Source of the DNA: an uncultured delta proteobacterium
Lineage (GTDB): Bacteria > Desulfobacterota > RBG-13-43-22
NCBI GenBank assembly: GCA_963843145.1
Contig: CAWJJC010000028.1
Location: 96,001 to 160,000 of the forward strand
Direction: 5' to 3'
DNA length: 64,000 nucleotides
A program made the position numbers and the translations under genes. Shown here in pieces: positions 5,566 through 45,045 of this stretch (the stretch's first letter is position 1; every line of letters begins with the position of its first letter). Under the pieces are notes generated by a model, which saw nothing but the letters and a program-made list of their open reading frames with translations, did not search any database and was not told the DNA's origin.

Positions 5566-5775
5566 TAGTATGTAAATAGCTTTCCGGGGCAAGGGGGTTT
5601 AGTACGAAAATAGCCTCCTAAAACGACACCAGGGCCAATAATCAATAATCAATTATCGATTATCAATTGATTATTAAGTTTTTCGTAGGGGCGGCGACCC
5701 CGTCACGCCCTAGGCGTGACCGGATTTGACCACCGTCGCCTTAGCTTGACCTTGGATAGGGAGTGAACCCTGACG
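5566..5775 (+). repeat. Degenerate cassette-site pair, AT-rich heptamer palindrome and truncated GTAG REP
   Basis: TAGTATGTAAATA...GGGGGTTTAGTACGAAAATA (5566-5612); AATAATCAATAATCAATT (~5637-5676); GTAGGGGCGGCGACCCCG (~5684). Confidence 0.7.
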
Positions 5776-5911
5776 CTTGCCCATTCGGCAGGCTATGATT
5801 ATATTGTTTCAGAACAAATATAAAATAAGTATAAGAAAGAAAGTTGAAGCAAGTCAAGCAGAAAGGGTCTGGAGGTTTATACCGCTTGTTGGGAAAAAGA
5901 GAAAAAACTCC

Positions 5912-5939
5912 TTGCCAAATCTATTGATTTTGGTAAAAT
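5912..5939 (+). promoter_or_regulatory. Sigma-70 promoter for tRNA-His
   Basis: TTGCCA-16 nt-TAAAAT with extended -10 TG, about 18 nt upstream of the tRNA. Confidence 0.6.
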
Positions 5940-5957
5940 ATTCTATTTTTGACTTAT

Positions 5958-6035
5958 GGTGAGTGTAGCTCAGTTGGTTAGAGCACTGGGTTGTGGCCCC
6001 AGAGGTCGAGGGTTCGAGCCCCTTCACTCACCCCA
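5958..6035 (+). tRNA. tRNA-His (GTG)
   Basis: Encoded G-1; acceptor stem GTGAGTG/CACTCAC; anticodon arm CTGGG-TTGTGGC-CCCAG; T-arm GGTTCGAGCC; C discriminator and CCA. Confidence 0.97.
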
Positions 6036-6065
6036 ATTTTCTAATATCGGGATGGGAACCTCACG

Positions 6066-6725
6066 ATGAGACCATTCAAAGTCATCCAGTTGATCCTTTT
6101 GGGCCTGCTGTCGGTTTCCCTGTGGTCCTGTTCGGGAAGCAGCTCCGACTCCGGGGGTGGAGGATCGAACTCGGATTACCAATTTCTTTTCGACCACAAT
6201 GCCCAGCAATTGGACGGCCACACGATTCGCTGGCAATCCAATACGATAAAAGTATATACCGCGGGGATTCCCGGTGCCGAAACGGCCGTAAACCGCTGGG
6301 CCGGGCCGGTTAATTTCGTTTTTGTCGGTTCCCCCCCGTCCGACGGCATCTCCTTTTCTTTGGCCGGTTCCACCAGTTTTTGTGGTGTAACCAATACCTT
6401 CTATCTTAACTCCGGGAGGATTTCCAGGGCGGAAGTCTCCATCAATGCCAACCAGCAGTTTTGCCGGGGAGGATTGGATAATACCCTGACCCATGAAACG
6501 GCCCATGCCTTGGGCTTTTTCGGACACACCGCGGACGGGACCCTGATGGACCCCGATGGAGGGAACGGGAGCATTACCGGTACGCTTAGAAATTTCATGG
6601 GGCTCCTTTATTCCCATGAACCCGGCTGGGATATCAATTCTTTCCTGTCGTTGCAGCGAAAGATGCCCGACCGTGGTCGTTATCAGGCGAACGGCACTCA
6701 AATGAACGTCCGGGTGGATTACTGA
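6066..6725 (+). CDS. Matrixin/metzincin-family zinc metallopeptidase lipoprotein
   Basis: Lipobox LWSC, HETAHALGFFGH zinc motif, Met-turn TLMDP. Confidence 0.85.
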   Translation: MRPFKVIQLILLGLLSVSLWSCSGSSSDSGGGGSNSDYQFLFDHNAQQLDGHTIRWQSNTIKVYTAGIPGAETAVNRWAGPVNFVFVGSPPSDGISFSLAGSTSFCGVTNTFYLNSGRISRAEVSINANQQFCRGGLDNTLTHETAHALGFFGHTADGTLMDPDGGNGSITGTLRNFMGLLYSHEPGWDINSFLSLQRKMPDRGRYQANGTQMNVRVDY

Positions 6726-6753
6726 TGACGGATAGGCGGCGAGGGGTTTAACC

Positions 6754-7167
6754 ATGCGACTGATCCTGCTTCTGGTCGTTTTGGCTTCCTTCGTCTCCGT
6801 GGCAGCGACCTGCCAGGAGGTCCGGCAGGAGTCGGGTCTTAACCTGATCGTCAGCGATATTCCTTGCGACAGCGTGGGGGATAAGCTCCAACAGGAGCTA
6901 AAACGGTTGCGAATTCCCGTCCTGAAAGTAGATCCGGCGCAGGGTCTTATTGAAACCGGGCCGGTACAAAATGATCCCCTGCCGGGTGATGGCTATAAAA
7001 GGGTTGAGGAACGGTACCGGTTGGAAATGAAATGCCGAGAGGCGTTGACGACTAAGATCACTTGCCAGGCTGTGGTCAAAGGCTTGAATCCGGATAACTC
7101 CTGGATCCAATTGTCGGAAACCGGACCTTACGAAAAGCGTTTTCTGGATCAACTAAAGATCCGATAA
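6754..7167 (+). CDS. Hypothetical exported protein
   Basis: N-terminal hydrophobic signal; SD GAGGGG; follows the peptidase gene. Confidence 0.65.
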   Translation: MRLILLLVVLASFVSVAATCQEVRQESGLNLIVSDIPCDSVGDKLQQELKRLRIPVLKVDPAQGLIETGPVQNDPLPGDGYKRVEERYRLEMKCREALTTKITCQAVVKGLNPDNSWIQLSETGPYEKRFLDQLKIR

Positions 7168-7219
7168 ATCTCCTGGGCTTCCGCCCTTTCCGCCGGTCAA
7201 TCCCCCTCTTTATTGAACC

Positions 7220-7316
7220 TTTTTTGCCGCAGACGCACGCGGACAAAGGCGGACTATTCTTTTTAGCCGGGCAAGTCGCCGCGACCCTGGCTCCGCCTTT
7301 GTCTGCGGCAAAAAAA
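7220..7316. repeat. Palindromic REP-like element
   Basis: Outer arms TTTTTGCCGCAGAC/GTCTGCGGCAAAAA and inner arms GACAAAGGCGGA/TCCGCCTTTGTC. Confidence 0.7.
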
Positions 7317-7366
7317 TTCCAAAATTTCGGCTGGGGTAATTCATTTTCTTAAGCGACTGAGCGACT

Positions 7367-8035
7367 ATGCACCATTTGACCAAGGCCCGGCTCGCAGAGG
7401 CGGACTGGAACATCATAAAGGAAATTGCCCGGAAGGCCGTTGGACCAGGTCCGGGCAGCCACGGTTGGGACCATGTGCGGCGGGTTTATGAATTGTGCCT
7501 GAAGATCGGCCGGAAAGAAAAGGCCGATTTGACCATACTGGGATTGGCCGCCTTGCTGCACGATATCGGGCGGCAGGAGGAGAAGGCCTCTAAGGGGAAG
7601 ATCTGTCATGCCCGGGTCGGCGCCCGCAAAGCCGCCGAAATCCTGGCGCCCCTTAACCTTGCCCCCGGTACCCGGCGGGCGGTGATTCACTGTATTCGCA
7701 GTCACCGCTTCAGAGGGAATCATCCCCCGGACAGTCTGGAAGCCCGGATCCTCTTTGATGCGGATAAGCTGGACTCCCTCGGGGCCGTGGGCGTGGGACG
7801 GGCCTTTTTGTTTGCCGGGGAAGTAGGGGCCAGGCTGCACAATGCCCATAAAGACCTTTCCCGGACCGTTTCATACAGTTGGGAGGATACCGCCTTCAGA
7901 GAATTTCAGGTAAAACTGAGGAAGGTCAAGGATCGCATGCAAACCCGGACCGGGAAGGCCCTGGCTGAAAGCCGGCACCTTTTTATGGTCCGATTTTTTG
8001 CCCGGCTGGATCAGGAGGTCAAGGCGTTGAAGTGA
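7367..8035 (+). CDS. HD-domain phosphohydrolase
   Basis: SHGWDHVRRV, ALLHDIGR, DADKLDSLGA. Confidence 0.9.
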   Translation: MHHLTKARLAEADWNIIKEIARKAVGPGPGSHGWDHVRRVYELCLKIGRKEKADLTILGLAALLHDIGRQEEKASKGKICHARVGARKAAEILAPLNLAPGTRRAVIHCIRSHRFRGNHPPDSLEARILFDADKLDSLGAVGVGRAFLFAGEVGARLHNAHKDLSRTVSYSWEDTAFREFQVKLRKVKDRMQTRTGKALAESRHLFMVRFFARLDQEVKALK

Positions 8036-8070
8036 CGGAGCCACGAGAGGATTCATTTATTCGCTTTTTC

Positions 8071-8244
8071 GTAGGGGAGGGGACTTCGGCGAGCCCTTCG
8101 ATTGACTCAGGGCCTTGAGCTTGCCGAAAGGCTCAGTCGAGTTGTTAACCCCCTCCCGAGCTTGGGAATCGGGGATTCACATCTTTTTACAACAACGTGA
8201 TTTATGCCGGGTTGGGTGCGGGAGGGGATGAACCCCTCCCCTAC
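8071..8244. repeat. GTAG REP doublet with nested palindromic insert
   Basis: GTAGGGGAGGGG[ACTTCGGCGAG...GCTCAGTCGAG]..TTAACCCCCTCCCG and CGGGAGGGGATGAACCCCTCCCCTAC; near-identical copy at 29318-29491. Confidence 0.85.
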
Positions 8245-8264
8245 ACTTTAGTAGCGATGAACCC

Positions 8265-8547
8265 AATTATTAATAATCAATTGTCAATTAATAATTAAGA
8301 ATTGATTATTGATTATTGGCCAAGGTGCAGGTTAAGGAGGTTATTTTCGTAATAAACCCCCATGCCCGGGGGCGGGCACCCCGAAGCATGAAAATATGAA
8401 CCGGCCAAGGTTCGTCATTCCGGACAAGCGAAGCGCGATCCGGAATCCAGCCTCGGATAAGCACTGGAGGTCCTGGATCCCGGATCGAGTCCGGGATGAC
8501 GGCAAAAAAATACCTCAAAGCGGAGTTCGACTTTATTTACATATTAA
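8265..8547 (-). mobile_element. Non-coding cassette array: half-site, CGTC REP doublet, full site, AT-rich heptamer cargo
   Basis: Half-site TTAATATGTAAATA (8547-8534) overlaps the nitroreductase stop codon; full site at 8342-8396. Confidence 0.65.
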
Positions 8548-9194
8548 ATCCAGCGGATCATTTGATCCACGTCGTCCCGATCGGATTTAAATTGGTTCAG
8601 GGGGGACTGGGGATCCCGGTAGCCTAAAGCAATCCCCAGGAGCATTTGTTTCTCCTCCGGGACGTTGAGCTGTTCTTTGATTTCTTCTTCATAGGCGTTG
8701 ATTAACCCTATCGGGCAGGTACCCAGGCCTTTGGCCTGAGCGGCCAGCAGGAAATAGCCCAGGGCCATCCCCACGCAGACCATCCGGGAAGCGGGGAAGA
8801 GACGGTCTAGAAAAACCAGCAGCACCGCCGGCGCTTCGTAAAAGCGGCAGCTCCCCTCGCCGATGAAGTGATTCAAATCCAGGGAAAGCTGTTCGGCGAC
8901 AGGTTTCATCCCGGCAAAAAGCCGGCGCTGGCGACCGATCCAGGGCTCCGGAAGAGGGCGAGACGTCCCGGCCCCGCAGGAAACTTGCTTTTCCCGGTGG
9001 GTCTGGAGAAGACGCTGGACCAGACGATCTCTTTCCCGGTCGGTGACCACTACGAATTCCCAGGGCTGGACATTGATGGCTGAGGGGGCTTTCCCGGCCC
9101 AGGAAAGCAGCTCCCGGATTAACTCCCTGGGAACGGGCTCGGGCAAAAAGACCCGGCAACTGGTGCGGTTTTCGATGGCTTGAAATAAGTCCAT
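8544..9194 (-). CDS. Nitroreductase family protein
   Basis: IENRTSCRVF, KAPSAINVQPWEF, GLGTCPIG. Confidence 0.92.
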   Translation of the reverse strand: MDLFQAIENRTSCRVFLPEPVPRELIRELLSWAGKAPSAINVQPWEFVVVTDRERDRLVQRLLQTHREKQVSCGAGTSRPLPEPWIGRQRRLFAGMKPVAEQLSLDLNHFIGEGSCRFYEAPAVLLVFLDRLFPASRMVCVGMALGYFLLAAQAKGLGTCPIGLINAYEEEIKEQLNVPEEKQMLLGIALGYRDPQSPLNQFKSDRDDVDQMIRWI

Positions 9195-9270
9195 AAGGCC
9201 AAGTTCCTTTCGAAAACTAATTTAAAAAATACTAACTGAACGCTCGGCGATGTCAAGAGAATAGACCTGT

Positions 9271-9845
9271 TTAATACGAAAATAGAACTCGGCACCACTC
9301 GGGCATTCATCAATAATTAATAATGAACAATTGATTATTAATTATTAATGTCAAAAACTTAGGCTTATGTCTGCCCCTTATTTTCATGCTTCGGGGTGCC
9401 CGCCCCGGGCATGGGGGTTAGTATGAAAATAGAATTGATCACCGCTTTTTAGGCGTTTTGTTTTTGCCGTCATCCCGGACTCGATCCGGGATCCAGGTGA
9501 CCCAGGACCTTCACTGCCCTGGATTCCGGCTTTCGCCGGAATGACGGTTATAGGGCACATACCAAAGGTCGTCACCCCGGCGAAAGCCGGGGTCCGGACA
9601 TCAAGCATGGATGAAGCAGAAGGTTGTTCCAATAATGAGTTATTCGTGGGGGCGGCGACCCCGTCACGCCTAAGGCGTGACCGGATTTGGCCACCGTCGC
9701 CGTCGCCTTACCTTGGATGTGCAGGAAACCTTATCCTTCACCCAGCCGGCCGGCGGGGTCGCCGGCCCTACGAAAAACGAAAACTTGGGACATTTTCATG
9801 CTTCGGGGTATCCGTCCAGGGCATGGGGGAGGTATTAAGCAAAAT
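9271..9845 (+). mobile_element. Non-coding cassette array: half-site, AT heptamer cargo, full site, CGTC plus GTAG REP cargo, degenerate full site
   Basis: Half-site 9271-9284; full sites 9379-9431 and 9792-9845; 9418-9548 nearly identical to 33141-33270. Confidence 0.7.
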
Positions 9846-9855
9846 GAGAGACCAA

Positions 9856-10442
9856 ATGAATCGTGTTCTTTTCTTAGACCGGGACGGGGTGATTTGCCGG
9901 GATCGGGCGGATTACGTCAAAAGCTGGGAGGAATTCCGGTTTATTCCCGGGGTCAAGGGGGCCTTGCGCGCAACTTGCGGGAGGCCGGAATACCCGTGCT
10001 GATCATCACCAACCAATCGGTGATCAACCGGGGGATCCTCACCCGGGAGGCCTTGGATAGCCTGCACGGCAAGATGATCCGGGAAGTCGCCCGGGCCGGG
10101 GGAGAAATAGCCGGGATCTATTATTGCCCGCACCGTCCGGATGAAGGCTGCGAGTGCCGCAAGCCCGGGACCGCCCTGTTGAAACAGGCCGCCCGGGAGC
10201 GCCGTTTGAATTTAAAAAAATGCGTCTTCGTGGGCGATACCCTGAAGGACCTGGAGGCGGGAAAAGGGGTGGGCTGCCGAACCATATTGGTTCAAACGGG
10301 GCAAGGCCGCGAAACATTGAAGAAGATATTCCAAACGGACCGTCCCGGCAGCAACTTCTTTATTGCCGGGGATTTGTTCCGAAGCGTTGATCTGATCATT
10401 CGATTGATGAATTCTGCCTTCACATACACACCAGGAGAATGA
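9856..10442 (+). CDS. gmhB: D-glycero-D-manno-heptose 1,7-bisphosphate phosphatase (HAD), apparent frameshift ~9970
   Basis: LFLDRDGVI in one frame; ITNQS, YCPHRPDEGCECRKP and VGDTLKDLEAG in the other. Confidence 0.85.
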
Positions 10443-10606
10443 AGCAACTAGTTACCATGGTGAGGGATTGCTTCACTCCGGATCAAGAAATCCGGGGTCG
10501 CAATGACAGGTTTTTGGACTTTTTGCCAACAGTTCAAGAATAAGGGGCTTGATAAAAATTGGAAAATTATTATGAGAAAAGGGTCGGAGGAAAGGGAAGG
10601 GGGGGC

Positions 10607-10645
10607 AAATAAAAAAGTGCCCGGGGAAGATTCCCCGGGCACTTT
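10607..10645 (-). terminator. Intrinsic terminator of pilA
   Basis: AAAGTGCCCGGGGAA-GA-TTCCCCGGGCACTTT with a U-tract on the minus strand. Confidence 0.8.
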
Positions 10646-10656
10646 GGATGGTTTTT

Positions 10657-11067
10657 TTATAAGGGCTTAATTACCCCGCCGACTGGCAACACCGTTCCAT
10701 CGGCGTTGATTTGATACGTATCGGCGGTCGCCTTCGCATTGACGGCCGTGACAATCCCTGCCGCCGTAACCGCGACAGTATCTCCCGGGCTGGCCCTGCT
10801 GGCCGAAGTATAGACTCCATAAGGCGCGCCGTTCGTGCTGGTATCGCCTACCAGGACGCCGCCCGGATTATCGGCGATACAGGCCTGAACCGCGGTGTAG
10901 AGATTCTTGGCATCAGATTTCATTGAGGCGATATAGGCTCTGCTCCGGTACTGGTTATACTGCGGAATGGCAATGGCGGCCAGAATGCCAATGATGGCGA
11001 CTACCACCAAAAGTTCCACCAGGGTAAAACCTTTTTGATTCCTCTTCTTGTTTAATTGCTTGATCAT
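10657..11067 (-). CDS. pilA: Type IVa major pilin
   Basis: KG|FTLVELLVVVAIIGILAAIAIPQY class III signal; SD AAGGAGG. Confidence 0.92.
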   Translation of the reverse strand: MIKQLNKKRNQKGFTLVELLVVVAIIGILAAIAIPQYNQYRSRAYIASMKSDAKNLYTAVQACIADNPGGVLVGDTSTNGAPYGVYTSASRASPGDTVAVTAAGIVTAVNAKATADTYQINADGTVLPVGGVIKPL

Positions 11068-11275
11068 TTTTTGTTCCTCCTTAGAATGGTTTTTTATTGT
11101 TTTATCGGTTTATTTTTTTAAGACTTTAAGGGCTACCAATGCTTACCAATTAAAGTGACCCTGTCCCCAACCCGATGGATCTGAACGCGCTGCCTGTTTC
11201 CCTCACCCCTTTCTATCATTTGGTTTTGCAATTTATCTATTAGGTATTAGACCGTTGCTTGTTGCCTTTCGTAAA

Positions 11276-11431: not shown

Positions 11432-13372
11432 TTACCAGCTTCCTCCGCCTCCTCCGCCAAAACCGCCGCCGGAGGAACCGCCGCCGAAACCACCTCCGGA
11501 ACCGCTTCCCCGGGGAGCTGAAATCAGGGCCGTGGTCATGGCAGCATTAGCCTGATTGATGGAATGAGAGAAGCTGGAGGTACTAAAGGTATGAAAACCA
11601 TCGGGGGAAGAATACCAGTCAGGGGGCTCCTGGTAGATACCTTTAAAGGCCCGGGCCCAGTTATCCACCACTCCCAGGGCCAGGGCGTAAGGGAGGTAGC
11701 GGGAGAAGAGGTGGGGGTCGGCCATTCGTTCCAGCCGGTCTTTTTCCGCCCGGCTCAAGAATTCCTGGAATCCTAAGGACTCCAGGCGAGTCCGGGCGCC
11801 CAAAATGGTTTTGACCGGCATAAAACGTGAGAAAAAGTAGAGCGGTAGTCCGCTCAGAGAAAAAGCCACAAAGGGTTTCCAAGAGGAATCCCAGGCCGCC
11901 ATCCCGGCCAGACCCAGCCCGATAACGACCAGGCCCGTATAACGATAACGGAGGCGGACCGTTTCCGGGCTTTGCAGGAAATATTTTTTCGCCACCAGAT
12001 CATTGAACAATTGATCCCGGAGAGGTTTCAAATGGGTATAAAATTTATTTTTAAGATCTGAAATCAGAATTTTTGGCCCGGAGGCGAACAGCCGGTCGAG
12101 CAGTTCCCTCTCGAAAGGACTCAGGGAGGAATCCGCCATCTTTAACCGGGACAAATCGTAATCGGTAGTGTCGAAGATCCAGCCCTCTTTTTTTATTTCC
12201 TCGACCTGAATGAACCCTTTGACCGCCAGTCCGATGAGGGAAGCGGTCAGATCGCGGGAGTCCACCTTCTCGTCTACCAGCGCCCCGATCTCCCCGGGAT
12301 TGAGGCTCTGTTCATTCGATTTCGGGGGTTGGTACTGGACCACCAGGGATTCCCGGACTTGGGGGTCACGCCCCCGGACAGCCCAGTGCCGGACCATGAA
12401 CAGGGTCATTAAGATCGGGAAGAAAAAGACCCAGTTCTCCCGAAAATTCAAAACCCAGGAAAACCGGCGCCAGGCGGAGGGCGGCGTCACCATTCCTTTG
12501 TCCCAGCCTAGGACGATGGTCAATCCTTCCCCGATATCGAGATTTTTTTTGGTAAAAAAGGCAGCGCCCCTCTGCAGCGGTTCCTGCCCGCAGACCGCCT
12601 CCCGTGACCCCGGGGGGCCGGTGTAACAGGCGGTACGAAAGGCACCCCCCTTCTTTTGTCCCATAACCAACACATTGGCGGCCGCCTCACGAATCGGGGC
12701 CGGCCATCCGTTTCCGGTTACGTTCCAGTAAAATTCGTCATGGTCCTCGAAATAGAGGAGTACATTCTCCACCCGGTAGGTGATGACGTAAGTTTGCCGC
12801 CCCTCCACGAATCTTTTTGGATCTCCGATCCGGATATGGACCATCGGGCCTTGTTTATCAATCTTATACTCCCAGGGACCCTGACTTTTATTGGTGACGG
12901 AAAGTATCCGGAGCGGCGTTTCCAGTGATTGGCCCTGGTCATCCCGGTAACGGTAGGGAATGTCCCGGTAGATCCCATGGCGGGGACGGTGGAATTCCAC
13001 CTCGATGGTTTCTTTAACATTTACCGAAGAGTCGGCCTCGATGAGTATGTCGGAGAAGAAACGGGTGATGGTAAAATCGGGAGGGCTAAGAGAAGGGGTT
13101 CGTCTTTTTAGCAGCTCGTCGATCCGGGGAAAATCATCCGTCCGTCCTTGCGGCCCGGCGGCAAAAGCGCTGCCGGCCAAAAGGGAAAATAGTAATCCTA
13201 TCCCGAGGAGAAGCATTAAGATAGGCCAATAATTGTTTTTCCCGTCATCCCGGACTGATCCGGATCCAGGACATTTCAGGCTTAATCGACCCTGGATTCC
13301 GGATCTCGCTTCGCTTGTCCGGAATGACGAGCTAATTTTTAAGCTTAAAAACAAATTTCTCGAAATGTTCAT
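11432..13372 (-). CDS. DUF2207 family membrane protein; start uncertain (13372 or ~13216)
   Basis: HGIYRDIP, DEFYWNVTGNGW, YLPYALALG and Gly-rich GGGFGGGGGGSW tail; classic lemA partner. Confidence 0.88.
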   Translation of the reverse strand: MNISRNLFLSLKISSSFRTSEARSGIQGRLSLKCPGSGSVRDDGKNNYWPILMLLLGIGLLFSLLAGSAFAAGPQGRTDDFPRIDELLKRRTPSLSPPDFTITRFFSDILIEADSSVNVKETIEVEFHRPRHGIYRDIPYRYRDDQGQSLETPLRILSVTNKSQGPWEYKIDKQGPMVHIRIGDPKRFVEGRQTYVITYRVENVLLYFEDHDEFYWNVTGNGWPAPIREAAANVLVMGQKKGGAFRTACYTGPPGSREAVCGQEPLQRGAAFFTKKNLDIGEGLTIVLGWDKGMVTPPSAWRRFSWVLNFRENWVFFFPILMTLFMVRHWAVRGRDPQVRESLVVQYQPPKSNEQSLNPGEIGALVDEKVDSRDLTASLIGLAVKGFIQVEEIKKEGWIFDTTDYDLSRLKMADSSLSPFERELLDRLFASGPKILISDLKNKFYTHLKPLRDQLFNDLVAKKYFLQSPETVRLRYRYTGLVVIGLGLAGMAAWDSSWKPFVAFSLSGLPLYFFSRFMPVKTILGARTRLESLGFQEFLSRAEKDRLERMADPHLFSRYLPYALALGVVDNWARAFKGIYQEPPDWYSSPDGFHTFSTSSFSHSINQANAAMTTALISAPRGSGSGGGFGGGSSGGGFGGGGGGSW

Positions 13373-23885: not shown

Positions 23886-24950
23886 TTATTCCAACGCATA
23901 CCGCCCGATCCGATCCGCGTGCAGGCTGCCCAGGTATAGATAGCCGCCGTATTCGCGGGCCGAGGTGATTTCCCAGAGATGTTTCCCGGTAGGCTCCTGG
24001 AGGCTTTTGATTATCTTGCCGTTTTCGTCCAAGGCCAGTACCAGGCCATAGGGCTTAGGTTTGGGCCAGAAGGCCTTGGGCAGTTTGGACAACAGGGACT
24101 TAATGAAGGGATAAGGGTGCATCTTGTCGACCGCGTCGTTGCGTACGGTGAAACAGGCCAACCAGAAGGTCCCCCGGCGGTTAGAGGTGATGTTGTCCGG
24201 AAAGCCGGGCAGGTTGTCGATAAACAGCTCGCTGGTTCCGGCCTTAGGGCCTTTCAGCCAGTAGCGGGTGATACGGTAGCGGTAGGTCTCGTTGACCAGG
24301 ACGAAATCCTCCTCAGCGGAGAGGGCCACCCCGTTGGCGAAAAACAGTCTATCGAGGAGTACGTTGATTTGTCCGGTGGCCGGGTCCAGGCGGATCAGTC
24401 GTCCGTGGGGCCGGGCTTCCAGCAGGTCATAGAGGTATTCGTTCTGGCCATATTTGGAACTGGCATCGGTGAAGTAGATGACGCCTTCCCGGGAGATATC
24501 CAGGGCATCGGTAAACTTGAAGGGAAGGCCGTTGATGGACGTGGCTAAAATAGTAATCTTCCCGGCGGGATTGATGGATAACAGGCCCTGATAGGAGTCG
24601 CAGACGATGAGATTTTGTTCTCGATCGAATTGCATTCCCAGGGGGCGCCCTCCTGTTCGGGCAAAGGTTTCCAGTTGCCCGTCGGGCCGGAGACGCAGGA
24701 TCTTTCCATCCTGGGTCCCGCCATAGACACGACCCTGGCGGTCCACGGCCACTTCCTCCGGCCCGTTGATTTTCCCTAAGGCCAAAAGATCGGCTTTTTT
24801 CAACAGATCATTGGGTGCCAGCACGCCGGTCATCGACGGTTTGAGCGGCGGGTTATAAACCGCCGGGTCGATGGGGGCCTTTTGGAGAAAAAGGCCTATT
24901 AATAGTAGGACCATGAGGATGGCGGCGCCGGCGAAGGTTTTCTTAATCAT
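23886..24950 (-). CDS. Strictosidine synthase-like / SMP-30 beta-propeller protein
   Basis: GPEEV, GGRPLGM, IYFTDAS, FANGVALS, NLPGFPDNI. Confidence 0.9.
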   Translation of the reverse strand: MIKKTFAGAAILMVLLLIGLFLQKAPIDPAVYNPPLKPSMTGVLAPNDLLKKADLLALGKINGPEEVAVDRQGRVYGGTQDGKILRLRPDGQLETFARTGGRPLGMQFDREQNLIVCDSYQGLLSINPAGKITILATSINGLPFKFTDALDISREGVIYFTDASSKYGQNEYLYDLLEARPHGRLIRLDPATGQINVLLDRLFFANGVALSAEEDFVLVNETYRYRITRYWLKGPKAGTSELFIDNLPGFPDNITSNRRGTFWLACFTVRNDAVDKMHPYPFIKSLLSKLPKAFWPKPKPYGLVLALDENGKIIKSLQEPTGKHLWEITSAREYGGYLYLGSLHADRIGRYALE

Positions 24951-25971
24951 GGTTTCCTCGGTCCGTCTCGGTTCCCTCGATCCTTCCTTGAATGATTCCG
25001 GAATCATTCGGCGTTTGAACGGGGATTCGCCGGAGTTCCCGGACCCCGGCCTGGACCAGCATCTCTCGGAGTTGACGATCGGAATAGGACTGGCCGTTTT
25101 CCGTTCCCAAGAGCATATTCAGGGAAAAAAGGGCCGGGAAGACCGGGCCGTCCATTTCGTCGTTCAAGATGAATTCGTGGATCAAAATTAATCCGCCGGG
25201 CGCTAAGCTGGAAACGGCTTTCCGGATCATTCGCTGACAATCCTCCGGTCCTTCCCCATGGAGAATATGGGACAGCCAGACCACATCAAAGGTCCCCTGA
25301 ATCGCTCCCTCCAGGTAATCGCCTTCCTGGAATTCAATGCGATCGGACAACCCGAAACGAGCGATGGTTTTTTCGGCAAAGGACCGGGTGGTGGGCAGGT
25401 CATAGACCGTGGCCCTTAACCCGGGGTTCTTCAGGCAGAAATGGATGGCGTAGGTACCCGGACCTCCCCCCAGATCCAGCAGGTGTTTGCGGCCGGAGAG
25501 GTCTATCTGCGGAACGATCCGGGGGGCCAGGTTCATGGCCATATTGAACATGCCCATGAGAAAACTTTCCCGCACCACCGCTTCTTCGAAGCCGGACCGG
25601 GACCGGGTCGCCTTGCCGGTGATGACCCCTTGGTCCAGTTTGCTCCAGGACTCCACCAGGTGGTGATGGTGCATGACCATATAGCCGAGATACTGCGGCG
25701 AATCCTTCTTCAGGAAGGTTTTACTGATATCCCTGTTGGCATAGACGTTTTCCTTTTTGGACAACAGTCCCAGGGCGGAGAGGGCGTTCAGCAGCATGGT
25801 CACTCCCCTGAGATCGCCTTTCAGGTCATCGGCGATATCCTGGGCCGTGCGGGATCGGTCCCCCATCAGGGAAAAAATTCCGAGCTTGACGCCCGCGTGC
25901 AGGGTGCAGGCTTTCCAATAGCTTCCCGAGACTTCCAATAGTTTTCCCGGATTCCATTCGGTCGTTTCCAT
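24943..25971 (-). CDS. SAM-dependent O-methyltransferase with dimerisation domain
   Basis: LLDLGGGPG, VYDLP, GDY, LSHILH. Confidence 0.9.
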   Translation of the reverse strand: METTEWNPGKLLEVSGSYWKACTLHAGVKLGIFSLMGDRSRTAQDIADDLKGDLRGVTMLLNALSALGLLSKKENVYANRDISKTFLKKDSPQYLGYMVMHHHHLVESWSKLDQGVITGKATRSRSGFEEAVVRESFLMGMFNMAMNLAPRIVPQIDLSGRKHLLDLGGGPGTYAIHFCLKNPGLRATVYDLPTTRSFAEKTIARFGLSDRIEFQEGDYLEGAIQGTFDVVWLSHILHGEGPEDCQRMIRKAVSSLAPGGLILIHEFILNDEMDGPVFPALFSLNMLLGTENGQSYSDRQLREMLVQAGVRELRRIPVQTPNDSGIIQGRIEGTETDRGNHD

Positions 25972-29245: not shown

Positions 29246-29532
29246 TCGTTTAGTATTAAACCCCCATGCTCGGGGCGGGCACCCACGAAGCATGAAAATA
29301 GTACAACCTTTTTTTATCGTAGGGGAGGGGACTTCGGCGAGCCCTTCGATTGACTCAGGGCCTTGAGCTTGCCGAAAGGCTCAGTCGAGCCGTTAACCCC
29401 CTCCCGAGCTTGGGAATCGAGGATTCGGATTTTTTCGAGGAGCGTGTACTAGGCTTAGCTGGTTGCGGGAGGGGATAAACCCCTCCCCTACACGCGCCCC
29501 CTTGAACTCTGTTTCTGCTTATTTTTTATTAA
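29246..29532 (-). mobile_element. Non-coding cassette: degenerate half-site, nested GTAG doublet, full site
   Basis: Full site 29246-29300; TTAATAAAAAATA at 29532-29520; cargo matches 8071-8244. Confidence 0.6.
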
Positions 29533-29557
29533 GAATACCATATAACAGATCGGATTA

Positions 29558-33126: not shown

Positions 33127-33140
33127 CGGGGGTCTCCTAT

Positions 33141-33346
33141 TTAATACGAAAATAGAATTGATCACCGCTTTTTAGGCGTTTTGTTTTTGCCGTCATCCCG
33201 GACTCGATCCGGGATCCAGGTGACCCAGGACCTTCACTGCCCTGGATTCCGGCGTTCGCTGGAATGACGACCTAATAAATTGAATAACCATAAATTTTCA
33301 TGCTTCGTGGGTGCCCGCCCCGGGCCTGCGGGTTTAATGTGAAAAT
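33141..33346 (+). mobile_element. Single complete non-coding cassette (~195 bp)
   Basis: Half-site TTAATACGAAAATA 33141-33154; CGTC doublet; full site 33294-33346. Confidence 0.7.
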
Positions 33347-33375
33347 TTATCCCTTTCGAATTTCTAACCAAAAAT

Positions 33376-39536: not shown

Positions 39537-39546
39537 GAGGGTAGCC

Positions 39547-40326
39547 ATGAAAGAAATTCCTCTCGGCAAAGAACTCTATGGCATGGTGATCGATTTAGAC
39601 CGGTGCACCGGATGTGGGGCCTGTGGCGTGGCCTGTTTCGCTGAAAATAACATCGCCTATCGAACGGATGAAACCGACAAGCTGCGAACGGGCACCTGGA
39701 TGCGGCTGTACCGCTTGAACAACGGAAAGCCCTTTCCCAAGACCCGGGTAGCCTATTTCCCCCGTCCCTGCATGCACTGCCAGAACCATACGCCCTGCGT
39801 TTCAGTCTGCCCGGTCAACGCCACTAAGATTGATGAACAAGGAGTGGTCAGCCAGATCTATCCCCGCTGCATCGGTTGCCGGTACTGTGTGGCCGCCTGC
39901 CCCTACCATGCCCGGTTGTTTCACTGGTGGGACCCGGTGTTCCCTCAGGGTATGGAAAATTACCTGAACCCGGACGTTTCCGTGGCCATGCGCGGAGTGG
40001 TCCATAAATGCACTTTCTGTCATCACCGCTATCAGCGGGCGAAAGACCGGGCCTTTATGGAAGAGCGCCGGGACCTGAAAGAGGGGGAATATAATACGGC
40101 CTGTGCCGAGGCCTGTCCCACCCAGGCTATAACCTTCGGGAATCTGCAAAATCCCGAAAGTGCGGTGGCCAGGCTGAGCAAAAGTCCCCGGGCCTTTCGC
40201 CTGTTGGAAAAACTGGGAACCCAACCCAAAGTGTATTATCTGACCTCGCAGGAGTGGATTCAGCGGCAAATTGACAACTATTTGGAGGGAGAGACCATCA
40301 AAAGGGTCTCGTCCGGGCATAACTAA
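39547..40326 (+). CDS. qrcC: Menaquinone reductase Fe-S subunit
   Basis: CTGCGACGVAC, CMHC..PCVSVCP, CIGCRYCVAACPY, KCTFC..ACAEACP. Confidence 0.9.
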   Translation: MKEIPLGKELYGMVIDLDRCTGCGACGVACFAENNIAYRTDETDKLRTGTWMRLYRLNNGKPFPKTRVAYFPRPCMHCQNHTPCVSVCPVNATKIDEQGVVSQIYPRCIGCRYCVAACPYHARLFHWWDPVFPQGMENYLNPDVSVAMRGVVHKCTFCHHRYQRAKDRAFMEERRDLKEGEYNTACAEACPTQAITFGNLQNPESAVARLSKSPRAFRLLEKLGTQPKVYYLTSQEWIQRQIDNYLEGETIKRVSSGHN

Positions 40327-40373
40327 CCGATTCGATTGCATCTTAAGGATATTCTATTAAAAGGGGTAACATA

Positions 40374-41612
40374 ATGGAGAAGACCTTGCCTGTTGATCAT
40401 GCCTTATTCCCGGAGGGGGTGGAACGGGGTTCCCTGCCAAAATTTCTGACCTGGATCTTTTTTCTTCTCCTGGTCGTGGGCTGGGGATTGGTTGGAGGCC
40501 TTCTGGTTTTGATTTTCGGGTTGAACCAGACCAATATGAACGACTATTTCGGGTTCGCCCTCTGGATCACCTTTGACCTGGCGATAATTGCTTTAGGGGC
40601 CGGGGCCTTCTTTACCGGGTTTTTGACCTATATCATCGGTAAAAAGGAACTCAAGGCCATTATCAATTTCGCCGTGATCATCGGGTTTATCTGTTATAGC
40701 GGGGCCATCCTGATACTCACCCTGGACGTGGGCCAGCCCTTACGGTCCTGGTACGGTTTCTGGCACCCCAACGTCCATTCCATGTTGACCGAAGTGATGT
40801 TCTGCATCACCCTGTATCTGGGGGTCCTGGCCATCGAATACTTGCCCTTGATCCTGGAAAACCGGGGTATCAATAAAAACCCCGGGGCCCATTATTTCGC
40901 CCATAACCTCCACCACCTGATGTTTATTTTTGCCGGGACCGGCACCTTTCTTTCGTTTTTCCACCAGGGTTCCCTGGGCGGTATGTACGGGGTCATGTTT
41001 GCCCGGCCTTTTGCCTTCCGGGAAGGGATTTTTATCTGGCCCTGGACTTTCTTCCTCTTCATCTCCTCGGCCATCGCCTCCGGCCCGGCCTTCACGGTGC
41101 TGATCACGGCCATTGTCCAAAAGGTCACCGGCCGGAAACTGGTCAAGCTGGAGGTGCTTTCTCTGATGGGCAAGATCGCCGGCAGCCTGCTGGCGGTCTA
41201 CTTGATCCTCAAGATTTTGGATACCCTCGGCTGGGCCTTTTCCATTCTGCCCAATCGGGGGATCACCTTCGGAAGCCAGTTCCATGGCCCCTACGGAATC
41301 TGGCTGATGGTGATGGAAATCGGGGTCCTGGGCATCCTTCCGGCCTGGATCCTCCTGTCCAAACGACGAAACAGTTACGGCTGGCTGGTCTTTGCCTGCC
41401 TCCTGGACTGCGCCGGGATTGTCTTTAACCGGTTTATTATGACCATCGTCACCTTGGCCATCCCGGTTATGCCTTTCGACCGGTTCGTCACCTACTGGCC
41501 CAGTTGGCAGGAGTGGGCGCCCACCTTTGCTATCCTGGCCTACGGAGGCCTGCTGATCTCCCTGTCGTACCGCTATTTGCCGATCTTTCCTCAGGAAAAA
41601 GAATTGAACTGA
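40374..41612 (+). CDS. qrcD: Menaquinone reductase NrfD/PsrC-family membrane subunit
   Basis: WITFDLAIIALGAGAF, DVGQPLR, SMLTEV, HQGSLGG; about 10 TM helices. Confidence 0.9.
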   Translation: MEKTLPVDHALFPEGVERGSLPKFLTWIFFLLLVVGWGLVGGLLVLIFGLNQTNMNDYFGFALWITFDLAIIALGAGAFFTGFLTYIIGKKELKAIINFAVIIGFICYSGAILILTLDVGQPLRSWYGFWHPNVHSMLTEVMFCITLYLGVLAIEYLPLILENRGINKNPGAHYFAHNLHHLMFIFAGTGTFLSFFHQGSLGGMYGVMFARPFAFREGIFIWPWTFFLFISSAIASGPAFTVLITAIVQKVTGRKLVKLEVLSLMGKIAGSLLAVYLILKILDTLGWAFSILPNRGITFGSQFHGPYGIWLMVMEIGVLGILPAWILLSKRRNSYGWLVFACLLDCAGIVFNRFIMTIVTLAIPVMPFDRFVTYWPSWQEWAPTFAILAYGGLLISLSYRYLPIFPQEKELN

Positions 41613-41636
41613 TCCTTATTAATAACCTTCAGGAGA

Positions 41637-41665
41637 AACGGGGGGATGGTTGCCATCCCCCCGTT
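41637..41665 (+). terminator. Hairpin after qrcD
   Basis: AACGGGGGGATGG-TTG-CCATCCCCCCGTT. Confidence 0.6.
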
Positions 41666-41714
41666 ACTATTTGGAGGGGTTGATCGTCGAATATCGAATG
41701 ACGAAGTGGTCTTT

Positions 41715-41895
41715 CGTAGGGGCGGCGACCCCGCCGCCCACCCCGGGGCCGGATTTGACCACCACCGCCGTAGCCTTGCCGGGGATGTGGAGTGCACCGT
41801 ATTCCTCACCCAGCCGGCAGGCGGGGTCGCCTGCCCTACGAAAAACGAAGACTTGGAACATTTTCGTGCTTCGCGTGACAGGGGAGTTAAATAAA
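41715..41895. repeat. GTAG REP doublet followed by a degenerate cassette site
   Basis: GTAGGGGCGGCGACCCCG..GGCGGGGTCGCCTGCCCTAC matches 9645-9770; then ACATTTTCGTGCTTCG. Confidence 0.75.
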
Positions 41896-41932
41896 TGGGG
41901 CTAACTGGGAAAAGTGAATTTGTCGATGAAAG

Positions 41933-42240
41933 CTATCTTCGTATAATATATGTCCGTTCGGGATAATATGGGTTACTTTCAATTACGGATTTTTCTCTCT
42001 GCAAAGACCGAATAACCCCTTGATGTGCCCTGGTATTAGGCGTATTGCGTAAAGATCTGGCATTTTCTTCTGCCAAACGGTAATGGGCTATCTCCGCTTC
42101 TTCCTGCGCCCGCTGAAGTTCGTTTGAAGTCCTGTTTGATTTTTCAATATTTACGGCGCCTTGGAAGTTGTTCTGGACGGGGACGTTTGAAAAAGAAACG
42201 TTGCCATTTTTATCCACAGATTTATAGTTAGTAAATTTAT
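41933..42240 (-). pseudogene. 5'-truncated DUF4124-like paralog of 44286-44822
   Basis: DKNGNVSFSN..ELQRAQEEAEI..ARSLRNTP aligns with the 44286 protein; no signal peptide or clear start. Confidence 0.6.
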
Positions 42241-42301
42241 CAAAAAAAGAAGTGATTATTCTCTTGACAGCCGGGCGGGAAAGCTTGAAAATATACCCTC
42301 A

Positions 42302-42736
42302 ATGAAGCGGGTTATATTCTTTTTGGCGGTCGGACTGAGCTTGGTTTTTCCTTTCGGAGGGCCGGTGGGGCAGGGTTATTCTTCGTCCGGTCCTTCGATT
42401 TCCATTTCGCCGGATGATTATGATGCCGGGGATTTGTCCAGAGCCCCTTCCACAGTCTACAAGGTGTTCCAGGTATTTAATACGGGAGATTCTCCGCTTT
42501 CCATTACCAAAATCAAATACACCTGAAGCATGAAGGTGGTGCGGTTCGATCCGCAGATCCAGCCCGGCGGGCAGGGAGAAATCGTCATAGGATTGGAAAC
42601 GGAGAAACTGGACGGCAAGTTCGATCGATATTTCAAAGTCCTCAGCAACGACCCCCGACGTCCTGAAATCCTCATCAAAGTGTATGGCTTCTCCTCCCCC
42701 TTCCGGTCTTCCCTGGCCCCGCCTTGTAATCTTTGA
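42302..42736 (+). CDS. DUF1573-like exported Ig-fold protein with in-frame TGA (candidate selenoprotein)
   Basis: F.VFNTGDSPLSI..T-TGA-SM..IQPGGQGEI..SNDP; the two ORFs are in the same frame, separated only by TGA 42524-42526 and AGC. Confidence 0.7.
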
Positions 42737-43346
42737 TTGTGACGGGGTATTATTCGATTCTCGGGAAGCCAACCGGGCGTTTTATAATCTCCTCTTGACC
42801 CGTTTCGGGAACCCCCCCTTATCGGAAGAAGCCTTAGATTACGTGCATATGCACACGGTGTTTGAAGCCGTCGATTTCCTTTTCCCGGCAGAAGGGGAAC
42901 GTTTGGCCGCCCATGCCTATCGACAGGATCTCGACCCGGAACCCTTCATTCGGCTCATGGTAGAAGAACCGGGGGTTAAGGAGTTCCTGACCTTTTTAAG
43001 GCCGGCGGTCAAGACCGCCATTTCCACTAACCGCACCACCACCATCAGGCAGGTCCTTTCCTTCCATGGGCTGAGCGAATGTTTCGACCTGGTGATCAGC
43101 GCCCTGGATGTATCCTGTCCTAAACCCCACCCGGAATCGCTGATTAAAATCCTTGACACCTTTCAAGTCCGGTCCGACGAGGCCGTCTATATTGGAGATT
43201 CGGTGGTCGATGCCGAGGCCGCGCAAAGGGCCGGAATTCCCTTGGTTGCCTATAAGAATCCTTGCCTGAAAGCGGACCTGCATGTGGCATCGTTCCGGGT
43301 TTTGAAGGAATGGATGGAAGAGCGGGGAGGCTGTTCCCGCGGTTAG
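42684..43346 (+). CDS. HAD-family hydrolase (phosphoglycolate phosphatase-like)
   Basis: IFDCDGVLFDS, STNR, PKPHPE, IGDSVVD. Confidence 0.9.
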   Translation: MASPPPSGLPWPRLVIFDCDGVLFDSREANRAFYNLLLTRFGNPPLSEEALDYVHMHTVFEAVDFLFPAEGERLAAHAYRQDLDPEPFIRLMVEEPGVKEFLTFLRPAVKTAISTNRTTTIRQVLSFHGLSECFDLVISALDVSCPKPHPESLIKILDTFQVRSDEAVYIGDSVVDAEAAQRAGIPLVAYKNPCLKADLHVASFRVLKEWMEERGGCSRG

Positions 43347-44034
43347 TATGTAAATAAGCCTCTATGACCTGCAAAAAGGCAATAATCAATAGATAATTGA
43401 CGATAGATAATTGACAATTGATTATTGATTATTGATATCCTGCGGTTAGGGAGTTGTCTCGCCCCTTTATTTTCATGCTTCGTGGGTGCCCCGCCGCCCA
43501 AACCAAGGCCGGAGAGGATCCCCGGCACCTTAGCCTAACCTTAGGATGTGAAGGGAACCATATCCCTCTCCCCGCCGGCCGGCGACCCCGCCGGCCCTAC
43601 TTTTAACTACGGTTATCCCCCACACCCCCACCCTCTCCCTCGTGGGGGAGAGGGAGCCAGAGGAAACAGCCCAAGCCTTTGAACTTCCCCTCCCCTGGCG
43701 GGAGGGGACTTCGGCGTGAGCCCTTCGGCAGTGAGCTCAGGGTCGAACTGCTCAGTCGAACGATAGAGGGGTGGGGGAACTACGATTTTTATGCTTCGTG
43801 GGTGCCCCGCCGCGGGGCATGGCGGTTTAGTACGAAAATAGAATCGAACACCGCTTTTTATGACTTTCCCCTAGGTAGTCATACCGGACTTGATCCGGTA
43901 TCCAGTACCTCCGGTGCTTATCCAAGGCTGGATTCCGGATCGCGCTTCGCTTGTCCGGAATGACAAATCTTGGTCAATCCTTATTTTCAAGCTTCGGGGT
44001 GCCCGCCCCAGGCATGGGGGTTTAGTATGTAAAT
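43343..44034 (+). mobile_element. Three-unit non-coding cassette array with nested REPs
   Basis: Half-site 43343-43356 (contains the HAD TAG stop); partial site 43468-43500; full sites 43785-43840 and 43982-44034. Confidence 0.7.
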
Positions 44035-44285
44035 GCAAAGTGCAAAATTAAAGATGTCTGATGTAGCACAGACGCCCTCGTCTGTGTCCCTATTCGTTTG
44101 AGGACCCACCAACAGGAAATAGGGAGCAACAAAAGCAAAGATAAAAATCCTCTCGAGTTAGGGAGGATTTTTTATTTGTGCGCCCGGCAGGGTCATACGG
44201 ATCCCAGTGCTGGCATCCTTCTTGTATTTTCTAATCCCCAGGGTTATTCAAAAATCTTAAGGATGAGTGAAGACGAGGAGGAAAA

Positions 44286-44822
44286 ATGAAACCGGGAATG
44301 GCTTGTTGCTGTCTTTTAGGTGTCTTATCTTGCTGGACACAGGGTTATCCGGAAACGATTCACCGATATACCGATAAAAACGGGGTGCTCTGTTTTTCCA
44401 ATTCCCTGACAGAGGGGAATTTTCCAAACCGGGGCCTATCAGAAAATCAAAAACCTGCTTCGGCTGAGCTGCAACGGGCGCGTGAACAAGCCGAAATCGA
44501 GTACTGGCGGGCGGTCGAGGCCAAGGCCCGCTCTTTGAGGAATACCCCTGACACCGAAGTTCACAGGAAAGGAAGACCTTCTTCACAGCTAGAGGACTTT
44601 AGTTTGCGGAAGGGCCCGTCCGGGAAAAAAACTCACAGACGGAAGACGGGGAAAATGCGTGGCTCCGTTTCTAATGACCGAAAACCTGTTCCTGATTCGG
44701 CTGAATCAAAGAAAGTTCGATCGAGGAAAACAAAGTTGCAGGCCTGGAAGAACGCACCGGAATGGGAATTTCAGAGTATGAATAGAAGCTATTTCCCGAG
44801 GAGGAACGCGGCTCTAAAGTAA
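44286..44822 (+). CDS. DUF4124-like exported protein with basic tail
   Basis: Signal-like N-terminus; IHRYTDKNGVLCFSN; SD GAGGAGG. Confidence 0.65.
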   Translation: MKPGMACCCLLGVLSCWTQGYPETIHRYTDKNGVLCFSNSLTEGNFPNRGLSENQKPASAELQRAREQAEIEYWRAVEAKARSLRNTPDTEVHRKGRPSSQLEDFSLRKGPSGKKTHRRKTGKMRGSVSNDRKPVPDSAESKKVRSRKTKLQAWKNAPEWEFQSMNRSYFPRRNAALK

Positions 44823-44825
44823 CCC

Positions 44826-45045
44826 GCTTCGGGGCACCCTCTGTGGCATGAGGGTTTAATACGTAAATAAAGTTGGACACCGCTTTTGAGGTTTTGGTTT
44901 TTGCTGTCATCCCGGACTCGATCCAGGATCCAGGCAACCCAAGACCTTCACTGCCCTGGATTCCGGCGTTCGCCGGAATGACGACCTAACCAAATGAATA
45001 AAAATTGATCTTCATGCTTCGCAGGTACCCGCTCCGGGCATAACG
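44826..45045 (+). mobile_element. Non-coding cassette with CGTC doublet cargo
   Basis: Partial site 44826-44869 ending TTAATACGTAAATA; cargo similar to 33155-33290; partial site 45008-45045. Confidence 0.65.

Follow-up and report, generated by a model that had tools for sequence, protein, structure and literature searches.

The question raised by this locus is whether an imperfect palindrome of ~54 bp that recurs between its genes is a recombination site that bounds cassettes, as in an integron, or belongs to some other kind of mobile DNA. The locus (the window in what follows) is a stretch of 64,000 nucleotides, C28:96001-160000, of G000, the 5.35-Mb draft genome (32 contigs, 54% G+C) of an uncultured delta proteobacterium of the sulfate-reducer type; a first-pass annotation, made from the letters of the window, had described the palindrome (the site) and its isolated last bases (half-sites) as the boundaries of integron-like arrays of noncoding cassettes. 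We find that the site lies at one end of polar, gene-less units and that whole units have been copied to new intergenic loci, without target duplication, at TTA/TTTA. The reading that we favor, at somewhat better than even confidence, is that these units are mobilized in trans, likely by an HUH enzyme, and that the 54-bp site is the 3′ tail they share rather than a free-standing recombination site. Mobilization in trans, without duplication and with TTA as the target, we propose with good confidence; an HUH enzyme is the likeliest of several possible movers.

Read in its own direction, the site consists of an L arm, (T)ATTTTCATGC, followed by TTCG(N)GGG, a GC hairpin of 6-8 bp, TGGGGG, and then the 15-nt R arm, TTTAGTAYGWAAATA. 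The hairpin is mostly TGCCCG-CCC-CGGGCA, with the variants TGCCCCG..CGGGGCA and TGGCCC..GGGCCA. We compared G000 with three genomes of the same genus, G001, G002 and G003; in G002 the hairpin variant TGGCCG..CGGCCA corresponds to TGCCCG/CGGGCA, that is, some compensatory change, in an alignment that is no covariation test, since the search pattern fixed the left half of the hairpin. A profile made from six window copies and run over the whole G000 genome recovers the seven full sites of the first-pass annotation (8342-8397(-), 9378-9432, 9792-9829, 29246-29301(-), 33293-33347, 43784-43841, and 43981-44035) and its four partial copies (5584-5613, 43468-43495, 44826-44869, and 45007-45042). Genome-wide, it matches 172 places at E<1 and 93 at E<=1e-5, and 88 of these 93 strong matches are intergenic by gene calls that are crude and based on open reading frames (ORFs).

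The R arm also occurs apart from the full site. With up to two mismatches allowed, R occurs 10 times in the window (0.07 expected; the maximum in 100 shuffles is 1). Across the genome, a degenerate R 15-mer gives 41, 126, and 245 hits at 0, <=1, and <=2 mismatches, against 1, 7, and 64 for its reversed sequence; 102 of the 245 are intergenic with unique DNA upstream and repeats downstream, that is, they open arrays, 30 are internal, 23 are terminal, and the remainder are solo, in coding sequence or noise. Five of the lone half-sites that had been annotated in the window (at 5566, 8547-8534(-), 9271, 33141, and 43343) were recovered by the R scan (5564, 8534-8548(-), 9270, 33140, and 43342), whereas the one suggested at 29532(-) is weak (TCTTAATAAAAAATA at 29521-29535(-), with three mismatches).

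The arrangement of R and the full site is strictly polar. When R was sought on both strands within 400 bp of 116 full sites, a same-strand R was found upstream of 71 and an opposite-strand R near none (0/116), in keeping with the order half-site, cargo, full site that had been described; the repeating entity is therefore R - core - L - hairpin - (R). The R-to-L distance in the 71 units is 21-358 bp, mostly 90-180 bp, so that the 150-290 bp originally given for the cargo fits whole units but not the usual cargo. The hairpin directly follows L in 89 cases, and true L arms that lack it are a handful. A called gene is present within 25 bp of the left edge of the site in 2 of 87 cases and of the right edge in 21 of 87.

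The units, mostly 110-260 bp and gene-less, have fixed ends, 5′-TTARTAYGAAAATAG ... GGGGGTTTA-3′; they share a 5′ module, RTAYGAAAATAG, and a 3′ module composed of the L arm, the GC hairpin, and GGGGGTTTA. Between these ends are at least six unrelated kinds of palindromic core: inverted pairs of repetitive extragenic palindromic (REP) sequences (A, D, and an E variant), heptamer palindromes of the AATAATC and other types, AT-rich or GC-rich (B, B′, F, G, and H), GTAG REPs (C and J), and a C-run/G-run hairpin (K). The first description of kinds A, B, and C, and of their order at 8.5, 9.3, and 43.3 kb, holds; at least three further kinds of cargo are present elsewhere in the genome. The kinds were sorted by hand and by BLAST clustering, which puts 54 of the 71 cargos in one group, the cargos being mosaics; automatic repeat families built greedily with nhmmer gave 0 hits on the low-complexity, AT-rich cores and were abandoned. 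None of the 71 units contains an ORF, as had been claimed. Apparent gene-bearing units with R-to-L intervals of 807-1243 bp (C19, C27) proved to be host genes between two separate elements, one of them presumably for a TatD-like hydrolase, judging from its translation.

For 56 of the 71 units, a paralog that covers at least 80% of the unit length is present elsewhere; 12 of the 56 paralogs are at least 93% identical (the best, 98.1%), and paralogs at unlinked loci are at least as close to one another as the genes of G002 are to those of G000 (the sister genomes are ~95% identical in genes). We defined the ends of the unit from 11 aligned copies of the youngest subfamily, flanks included. In all 11, similarity starts at TTA[AG]T, that is, at the TTA before RTAYGAAAATAG, and the preceding bases are A, G, T, T, C, T, C, T, T, G, and T; where unique DNA follows, similarity stops at GGGGGTTTAGTAC or a variant. 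Within one copy the left end reads TTAATAC and the right end TTAGTAC, and each is constant among copies; the ends thus belong to the element rather than being duplications of the target. No flanking target duplication is found in the 11 aligned copies or at the two polarized insertions described below, which speaks against a miniature inverted-repeat transposable element (MITE) with target duplications, the alternative named in the first-pass annotation. Every unit ends in GGGGGTTTA, and therefore the next unit can land there, with a complete R rebuilt at the joint; landing at the 3′ end of a resident unit, which is frequent, explains the arrays. Insertion yields head-to-tail arrays (R-core-L-hairpin-R-core-L-hairpin-R), units are later lost at the TTTA boundary, and cores are deleted or replaced.

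The related genomes G001-G003 share the repeat family and reveal its turnover at orthologous loci. When 1.18 Mb of G002 was compared with G000, 888,614 bases could be aligned, with 303 gaps between collinear blocks (for the window, 27 aligned blocks, 55,230 bases, 88-98% identity). Two insertions can be polarized. The unit at G000:C28:614753-614999 is missing in G002 and G001, in which the flanking matches lie 3 bp and 1 bp apart, respectively (G003 has 171 other bases); the empty site, CATATAG TTTTGATAATCACCTAG AGGAGG, is a T-rich, R-like stretch 8 nt before the ribosome-binding site. The unit at G000:C27:88715-88958 stands immediately behind a resident site, after its GGGTTTA; G002 has the ortholog of this site but not the unit, which is absent from G001 and G003 as well. 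Two further one-unit indels, at the hairpin/R boundary and unpolarized by outgroups, are a K unit present at G002:C42:21352-21494 and missing at G000:C25:60886, and a B unit present at G000:C28:435947-436094 and missing in G002 (G002:C13:164677). In both, the R of the empty allele equals the right-hand R of the filled allele, and the joint therefore lies within GGTTTA. The gains and losses seen are thus insertions and precise indels; the four events are consistent with TTA/TTTA, as expected of precise gain and loss at the TTA boundary.

Cargo is also exchanged between conserved flanking sites in sister species, which bears out the shuffling that had been proposed. At 9230-9792, where G000 has B′, a site, A, and REPs, one K unit fills the interval from the shared opening R to the shared gene-proximal site in G002; at another locus, four different fillings precede one conserved gene-proximal site in the four genomes. 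G002 lacks the A cargo of array 7 (44868-45006), and its R arm stands directly against L. Some losses and core swaps are surely due in part to passive recombination and slippage, but these cannot put whole units into naive DNA. Public sequencing reads added little: none of the runs contains more than 0.16 of the sampled words of the genome, and contigs from four runs over 5400-10100 are short pieces only, two of which jump over 5557-5824/5846; with 28 and 20 letters on the two sides, these are too weak to count.

No recombinase or transposase gene adjoins the sites, and therefore any enzyme acts in trans, that is, it is encoded elsewhere, as the first-pass annotation had supposed. In the mechanism that we envisage, a strand-specific and site-specific enzyme, most likely a Y1 HUH transposase of the IS200/IS605-RAYT kind acting on single-stranded DNA, would move the units in trans; L would pair with the 5′ arm, and the GC hairpin would mark the 3′ cleavage site. 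G000 has 11 Y1_Tnp matches, including one IS200 transposase, a copy with ends other than unit ends, and about eight genes that resemble those for REP-associated tyrosine transposases (RAYTs). Two 330-aa Y1 proteins, one with a DnaA-C-like tail, score 78.3 and 63.7 bits against the NCBIfam REP-associated tyrosine transposase model (cut-off 80). A 333-aa RAYT-like Y1 gene is present in three copies (G000:C12:95484-96485, C15:55410-56411, and C15:62242-63243) with similar flanks (..GGGACGTTGGTT.. / ..AACCAACGT..), and therefore itself looks like a multi-copy element, whereas classic RAYTs are single-copy. A rolling-circle partner of the IS91 type was considered and rejected: the genome holds one broken Y2 gene (C10:46185-46671), with no site hit nearby.

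Several observations weigh against this reading. Neither a site nor an L arm is found within 3 kb of any of the 11 Y1 genes; a recombinase or RAYT gene flanked by the site, for which the first-pass annotation had proposed to look, is absent among the Y1 and Phage_integrase matches examined; a stray R-like 15-mer is near three of the 11 only. TnpB was not found in G000-G003 or one further genome. The 5′ end has no conserved hairpin, and only ~12-25 nt of it are common among core types. Orientation is concordant with local GC skew for 60 of 106 sites and discordant for 46 (Fisher p = 0.24), in a test weakened by the draft assembly. When four sites were folded as single strands, one was clearly better than shuffles (z -3.6) and the other three were near z -1; L shows no covariation with R, the common ACG and GTA variants of R being mismatched with L. 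At the first polarized insertion, a few joint bases differ from both relatives, so that the cut cannot be placed to the nucleotide, and deletion by slippage across the 6-nt GGTTTA would explain the two unpolarized indels just as well. Finally, some differences are untidy: array 1 (5557-5831; 24 unrelated bp in G002) and array 5 (33138-33375) are replaced in G002 by 24-80 unrelated bases rather than cleanly removed, the D unit in G002 has ~22 extra bases at its right end, and a unit on C5 lacks TTTAGTA at the joint.

The geometry would be accommodated equally well by a tyrosine-recombinase cassette system, integron-like or Xer-like, in which a circular unit bearing the complete L-hairpin-R site would cross over with an R or R-like target inside the TTTA(R)TA core of R, leaving R as attL and L-hairpin-R as attR, and the same reaction would excise and reshuffle units. 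The arrangement is exactly that of a cassette array: a short 3′ part of the site, then cargo, then the full imperfect palindrome, with the site shared by neighbors, the boundary fixed inside it, and the four indels consistent with a TTTA boundary. In addition, the same 7-8 nt (TTARTAC) are at both ends of every unit, as att cores would be, the empty targets are R-like, the one-unit indels are at the hairpin/R boundary, and the genome has 16 Phage_integrase matches. A likeness to XerH-type dif arms, noted in the first-pass annotation, is real at the level of sequence: Helicobacter pylori difH, TTTAGTTATGAAAAC..TTTTCAAAC, has a left arm almost like the R arm TTTAGTATGAAAATA, and the TTTTCA of its right arm is present in L (PMC2731167 Table 2); the cargo-less R-L joints (the G002 counterparts of 44867-44999 and of G000:C28:435947) have about the spacing of the difH arms. 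The best classical dif-like 28-mer in the genome, at G000:C27:81647-81674, has an outer arm identical at 8 of 11 positions to the GTATGTAAATA form of R. We take this 28-mer to be the dif candidate (three mismatches to the consensus), and its presence elsewhere in the genome counts against a dif role for the units. Among Xer/dif sites, difH/difSL come nearest to the site; IMEX and plasmid dif modules are known elements that exploit Xer. dif is single-copy near the terminus and has two ~11-bp arms around 6-8 bp, whereas here there are >100 copies with ~36 bp between the L and R arms, and the unit boundaries are in the outer part of R, not in the central region between the arms. A genome-wide search for PF00589 places its 16 matches outside C28:96001-160000, and no recombinase gene is in the window or beside any array. 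The integron interpretation fails for the lack of an integrase, attI or promoter module, for cargo without ORFs, for arms (TATTTTCAT/ATGAAAATA) unlike the conserved 7-nt inverse-core and core motifs that attC carries at its two ends, and for units dispersed over >100 loci, 1-3 per locus, rather than in one array. Moreover, the left and right cores differ and are inherited among siblings rather than reset at each insertion, and inverted cargo is never found, though L and R are inverted repeats. We consider a tyrosine recombinase unlikely.

A mosaic without dedicated mobility, like the bacterial interspersed mosaic elements (BIMEs), in which the AT-rich arms are common linkers and arrays change by ectopic gene conversion, homologous recombination, and replication slippage between dispersed copies, seems to us less likely again. 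Such processes would explain why cores are swapped between conserved arms, the internal deletion of palindromic cores (e.g., the event at G002:C13:105305), the A-cargo difference at 44867-44999 (as deletion across TAAA(T/A)A microhomology), the many differences that are messy replacements, and the finding of neither an enzyme nor a strand bias in a genome with ~240 kb of repeated intergenic DNA. They would not account for two units in DNA that is unit-free in the sister and outgroup, where the prior homology is a few T-rich bases, or for near-identical whole units, both ends included, at unlinked loci; the strict polarity and fixed termini are likewise unexpected from random exchange. Improbable in our view is a selected regulatory signal (a terminator/attenuator, promoter or translation start region) for which spread is secondary. 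Of the sites with a co-oriented downstream gene, 15 of 55 end within 25 nt of the called start, a G-run and an ATG inside R apparently serve as ribosome-binding site and start codon at G000:C28 ~435.9 kb, three genomes share an orthologous gene-proximal site (9792-9845), and a simple scan flags the A trailer hairpin with the T-run of L, and also the A leader, as terminator-like; nevertheless, orientation relative to neighboring genes is mildly skewed (55 vs 32), with gene starts and ends alike, G5TTTA and no U-tract follows the hairpin, the sites themselves have no sigma-70-like pair (scan of 5400-10100), no Rfam family matches them, and units are missing in the sister species at many loci. 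Position and orientation are too mixed for regulation to be the primary explanation, and we regard it as a possible secondary use.

A bolder proposal, which we offer as doubtful when its parts are taken together, is that of an integrase-less vehicle for noncoding cassettes: one enzyme acting in trans (a domesticated RAYT-like HUH or an Xer-like protein) would recognize the folded L-hairpin-R end; the shell would have captured REPINs and heptamer palindromes like those of intervening sequences (IVSs) as interchangeable cargo and would stack at TTTA; and intergenic DNA, including ribosome-binding sites and stop codons, would be reshuffled between species ~5% apart in their genes.

Returning to units moved in trans, probably by an HUH enzyme, the closest known kind appears, by analogy, to be the duplication-free, TTTAA-targeting miniatures of the mini-IS605/mini-IS606 type; gene-less miniature derivatives of IS200/IS605 are also known as PATE-type elements. 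According to PMC5027513, elements of the IS200/IS605 family insert with their left end invariably 3′ of a set sequence of four or five nucleotides (TTAC for IS608), with a preference for the lagging-strand template; PMC2993954 gives TTTAA/TTTAAA as the target of IS605 and reports gene-less mini-IS605 copies. Likewise, the left end of our units is directly 3′ of a T-rich word (TTA/TTTA); the ends are asymmetric and without target duplication, a hairpin precedes the 3′ end (TTTA) by ~9 nt, the 3′ end of the element mimics its target and thereby permits tandem head-to-tail copies, and Y1 HUH genes are in the genome. The differences are that no autonomous element with these ends was found in G000 and no TnpB in the members of the genus searched, that the left end has no conserved hairpin, that at least six unrelated cores share the ends, and that no lagging-strand bias in orientation is seen.

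The cargo recalls a second known kind. REPINs are inverted REP pairs (PMC3337134, PMC3116915), and cores A and D are of this form. Like REPINs and RAYTs, the units are intergenic, abundant, and lineage-restricted in a genome with RAYT-like genes. The arrays recall BIMEs, in which alternately oriented short motifs are separated by alternating linkers. Unlike a REPIN, the 54-bp site is no REP pair, the copied unit is a larger polar shell with differing 5′ and 3′ ends, and one common shell holds several kinds of REPIN as well as non-REP heptamer palindromes; the RAYT-like genes here are multi-copy and not flanked by the site. Classical MITEs, such as Correia elements, have terminal inverted repeats and target duplications. 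The units share with them their size, lack of genes, palindromic body, intergenic position near gene starts and ends, and an inverted repeat (R and L, 9-13 nt) around the cargo; in contrast to MITEs, they lack target duplications, insert site-specifically, and continue past the inverted repeat through the hairpin to TTTA.

In a collection of 185,579 species, an exact 21-22-nt word (L and the start of the hairpin) occurs in 41 stretches; with one exception, the record titles name uncultured delta-proteobacterial or Thermodesulfobacteriota genomes, mostly of the genus of the window, and that exception, 3.6 kb long, is a contig assigned to Terriglobia. When 41 relatives were searched with a looser pattern, 5 genomes, including G000, had matches, and no record in a plasmid collection matches a unit. 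No paper on these elements was found in a literature search that was aimed at the comparison families and not at this lineage. Miniature, enzyme-less, duplication-free elements and REP mosaics are known kinds; what appears to be new is a shared polar shell on many unrelated palindromic cores that stacks like cassettes at TTTA and has no cognate enzyme. The units are thus a clear case of a duplication-free, TTA-targeting miniature with ends common to many unrelated cores, and of cassette-like arrays built without a linked enzyme. Turnover of the intergenic DNA is fast, ~95%-identical sister genomes having different fillings at many loci, and the data suggest that host genes can obtain stop codons and, as it appears, start regions from units. 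At present this is a descriptive extension of known repeat biology to an uncultured lineage; a mobilizing enzyme, if found, would link REP/RAYT biology, single-strand transposition of the IS200/IS605 type, and integron-like array building, and might provide a compact site-specific insertion module.

The arrays of the window are collected in Table 1. The genes that flank them encode ordinary enzymes (twelve window proteins examined). The R-like motif at the stop-codon position 8534-8548(-) is shared by all four genomes; at 8040-8341, G002 and G001 have a different filling. Alignment ends cluster at 9418-9419 and 9431, in the full site of array 3, and the gene-proximal site at 9792-9845 is orthologous in G002 and G001 and absent in G003. 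The unit of array 5 is 94-95% identical to a unit on contig C2.

Table 1. Site-bearing arrays of the window and their parts (window positions; D1, D3, D10, D12, and D14 are repeat families).
Feature	Position	Strand	Description
Array 1, opening	5564..5612	+	Lone R 5564-5578; hairpin-deleted site ending in R 5598-5612
Array 1, cargo	5613..5800	+	AATAATC heptamer palindrome (B), then GTAG-type REP module (families D3, D12)
Array 2, opening R	8534..8548	-	Its TAA is the stop codon of the nitroreductase-family gene 8544-9194(-)
Array 2, A cargo	8398..8533	-	CCGCTTT leader and inverted REP pair (GTCAT...ATGAC)
Array 2, full site	8342..8397	-	L arm, GC hairpin, R arm; profile E 7.8e-18
Array 2, remainder	8040..8341	-	B heptamer palindrome 8255-8341; GTAG REP doublet 8040-8254 (D3, D10)
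Array 3, opening R	9270..9284	+	Just beyond the sigma-70-like promoter of the divergent gene
Array 3, B′ cargo	9285..9377	+	AT-rich heptamer palindrome with its own leader and trailer
Array 3, full site	9378..9432	+	Profile E 6.7e-17; R common to the next unit
Array 3, A cargo and REPs	9433..9791	+	A 9433-9546, then GTAG-type REP modules (D1, D12, D14)
Array 3, gene-proximal site	9792..9845	+	Decayed R arm; its end is 11 nt upstream of a HAD-family hydrolase gene (conserved ATG, 9857)
Array 4	29246..29535	-	Weak R-like 29521-29535, GTAG REP doublet cargo, full site 29246-29301
Array 5	33140..33347	+	Single young A-type unit: R 33140-33154, cargo, site 33293-33347
Array 6, start	43342..	+	R 43342-43356, B cargo, truncated site 43468-43495 fused to GTAG REP
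Array 6, rest	..44035	+	More REP modules, site 43784-43841, A cargo, site 43981-44035
Array 7	44826..45042	+	Partial site with R 44853-44867, A cargo 44868-45006, partial site 45007-45042

Two start regions near arrays deserve description. At G000:C28 ~435,880-435,950, an ATG is inside the R arm (..CATGAGGATTTACTATGAGC..) with the G-run as ribosome-binding site, as read from the alignment only; this arrangement is kept in G000-G003, and the upstream DNA is different in all four. In the window, the sigma-70-like promoter of the nitroreductase-family gene, 9229-9256(-) (TTGACA-16 nt-TAGTAT), is conserved in four genomes, and in G003 repeat modules lie between this promoter and its gene. An Rfam scan of the window found a tRNA and a signal recognition particle (SRP) RNA only: the tRNA gene, 5959-6032(+), is just beyond array 1, and the SRP RNA, 51812-52071(-), is of the large bacterial type.

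The site-bearing units are one layer of the ~240 kb of repeated intergenic DNA, which is of many kinds. GTAG-type REP modules like the C cargo occur at 41687-41873 with no R or L arm, and G002 lacks the 570-bp intergenic block around them (41675-42248). At 2671-2853 and 58324-58473 of the window are heptamer palindromes of the GAACATC type, a type that also flanks genes for '23S rRNA IVS protein' at C28:509044 and C3:115300. We considered such genes (S23p) as full-length forms of the units and rejected them: the heptamer arms of the 13 that were inspected, out of 17 PF05635 matches, correspond to the B, G, and H cores, but no site is present within 800 bp of these genes and neither R nor L flanks them. 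A genome-wide scan for cargo-less R-L palindromes was likewise set aside (155 hits vs 110 in the control, mostly noise). A further repeated module (..GGTTGTTCGCCCTTTGGGGTGGGTGG..; e.g., G000:C25:5875-6163 and C27:427220-427260) is often directly before the opening R, and its reverse complement follows some sites.

Other differences between G000 and the syntenic G002 are in genes. A DUF2207 membrane-protein gene, 11432-13372(-), and a strictosidine-synthase-like gene, 23886-25007(-), are present in G000 and missing from G002 (indels of 1.9 kb and 1.1 kb, respectively). Three tandem 63-bp repeats at 54564-54752 lie inside the ORF 54513-56432, where the alignment with G002 breaks and there are ~300 extra bases, which suggests that the number of copies of this repeat may vary between the two genomes.

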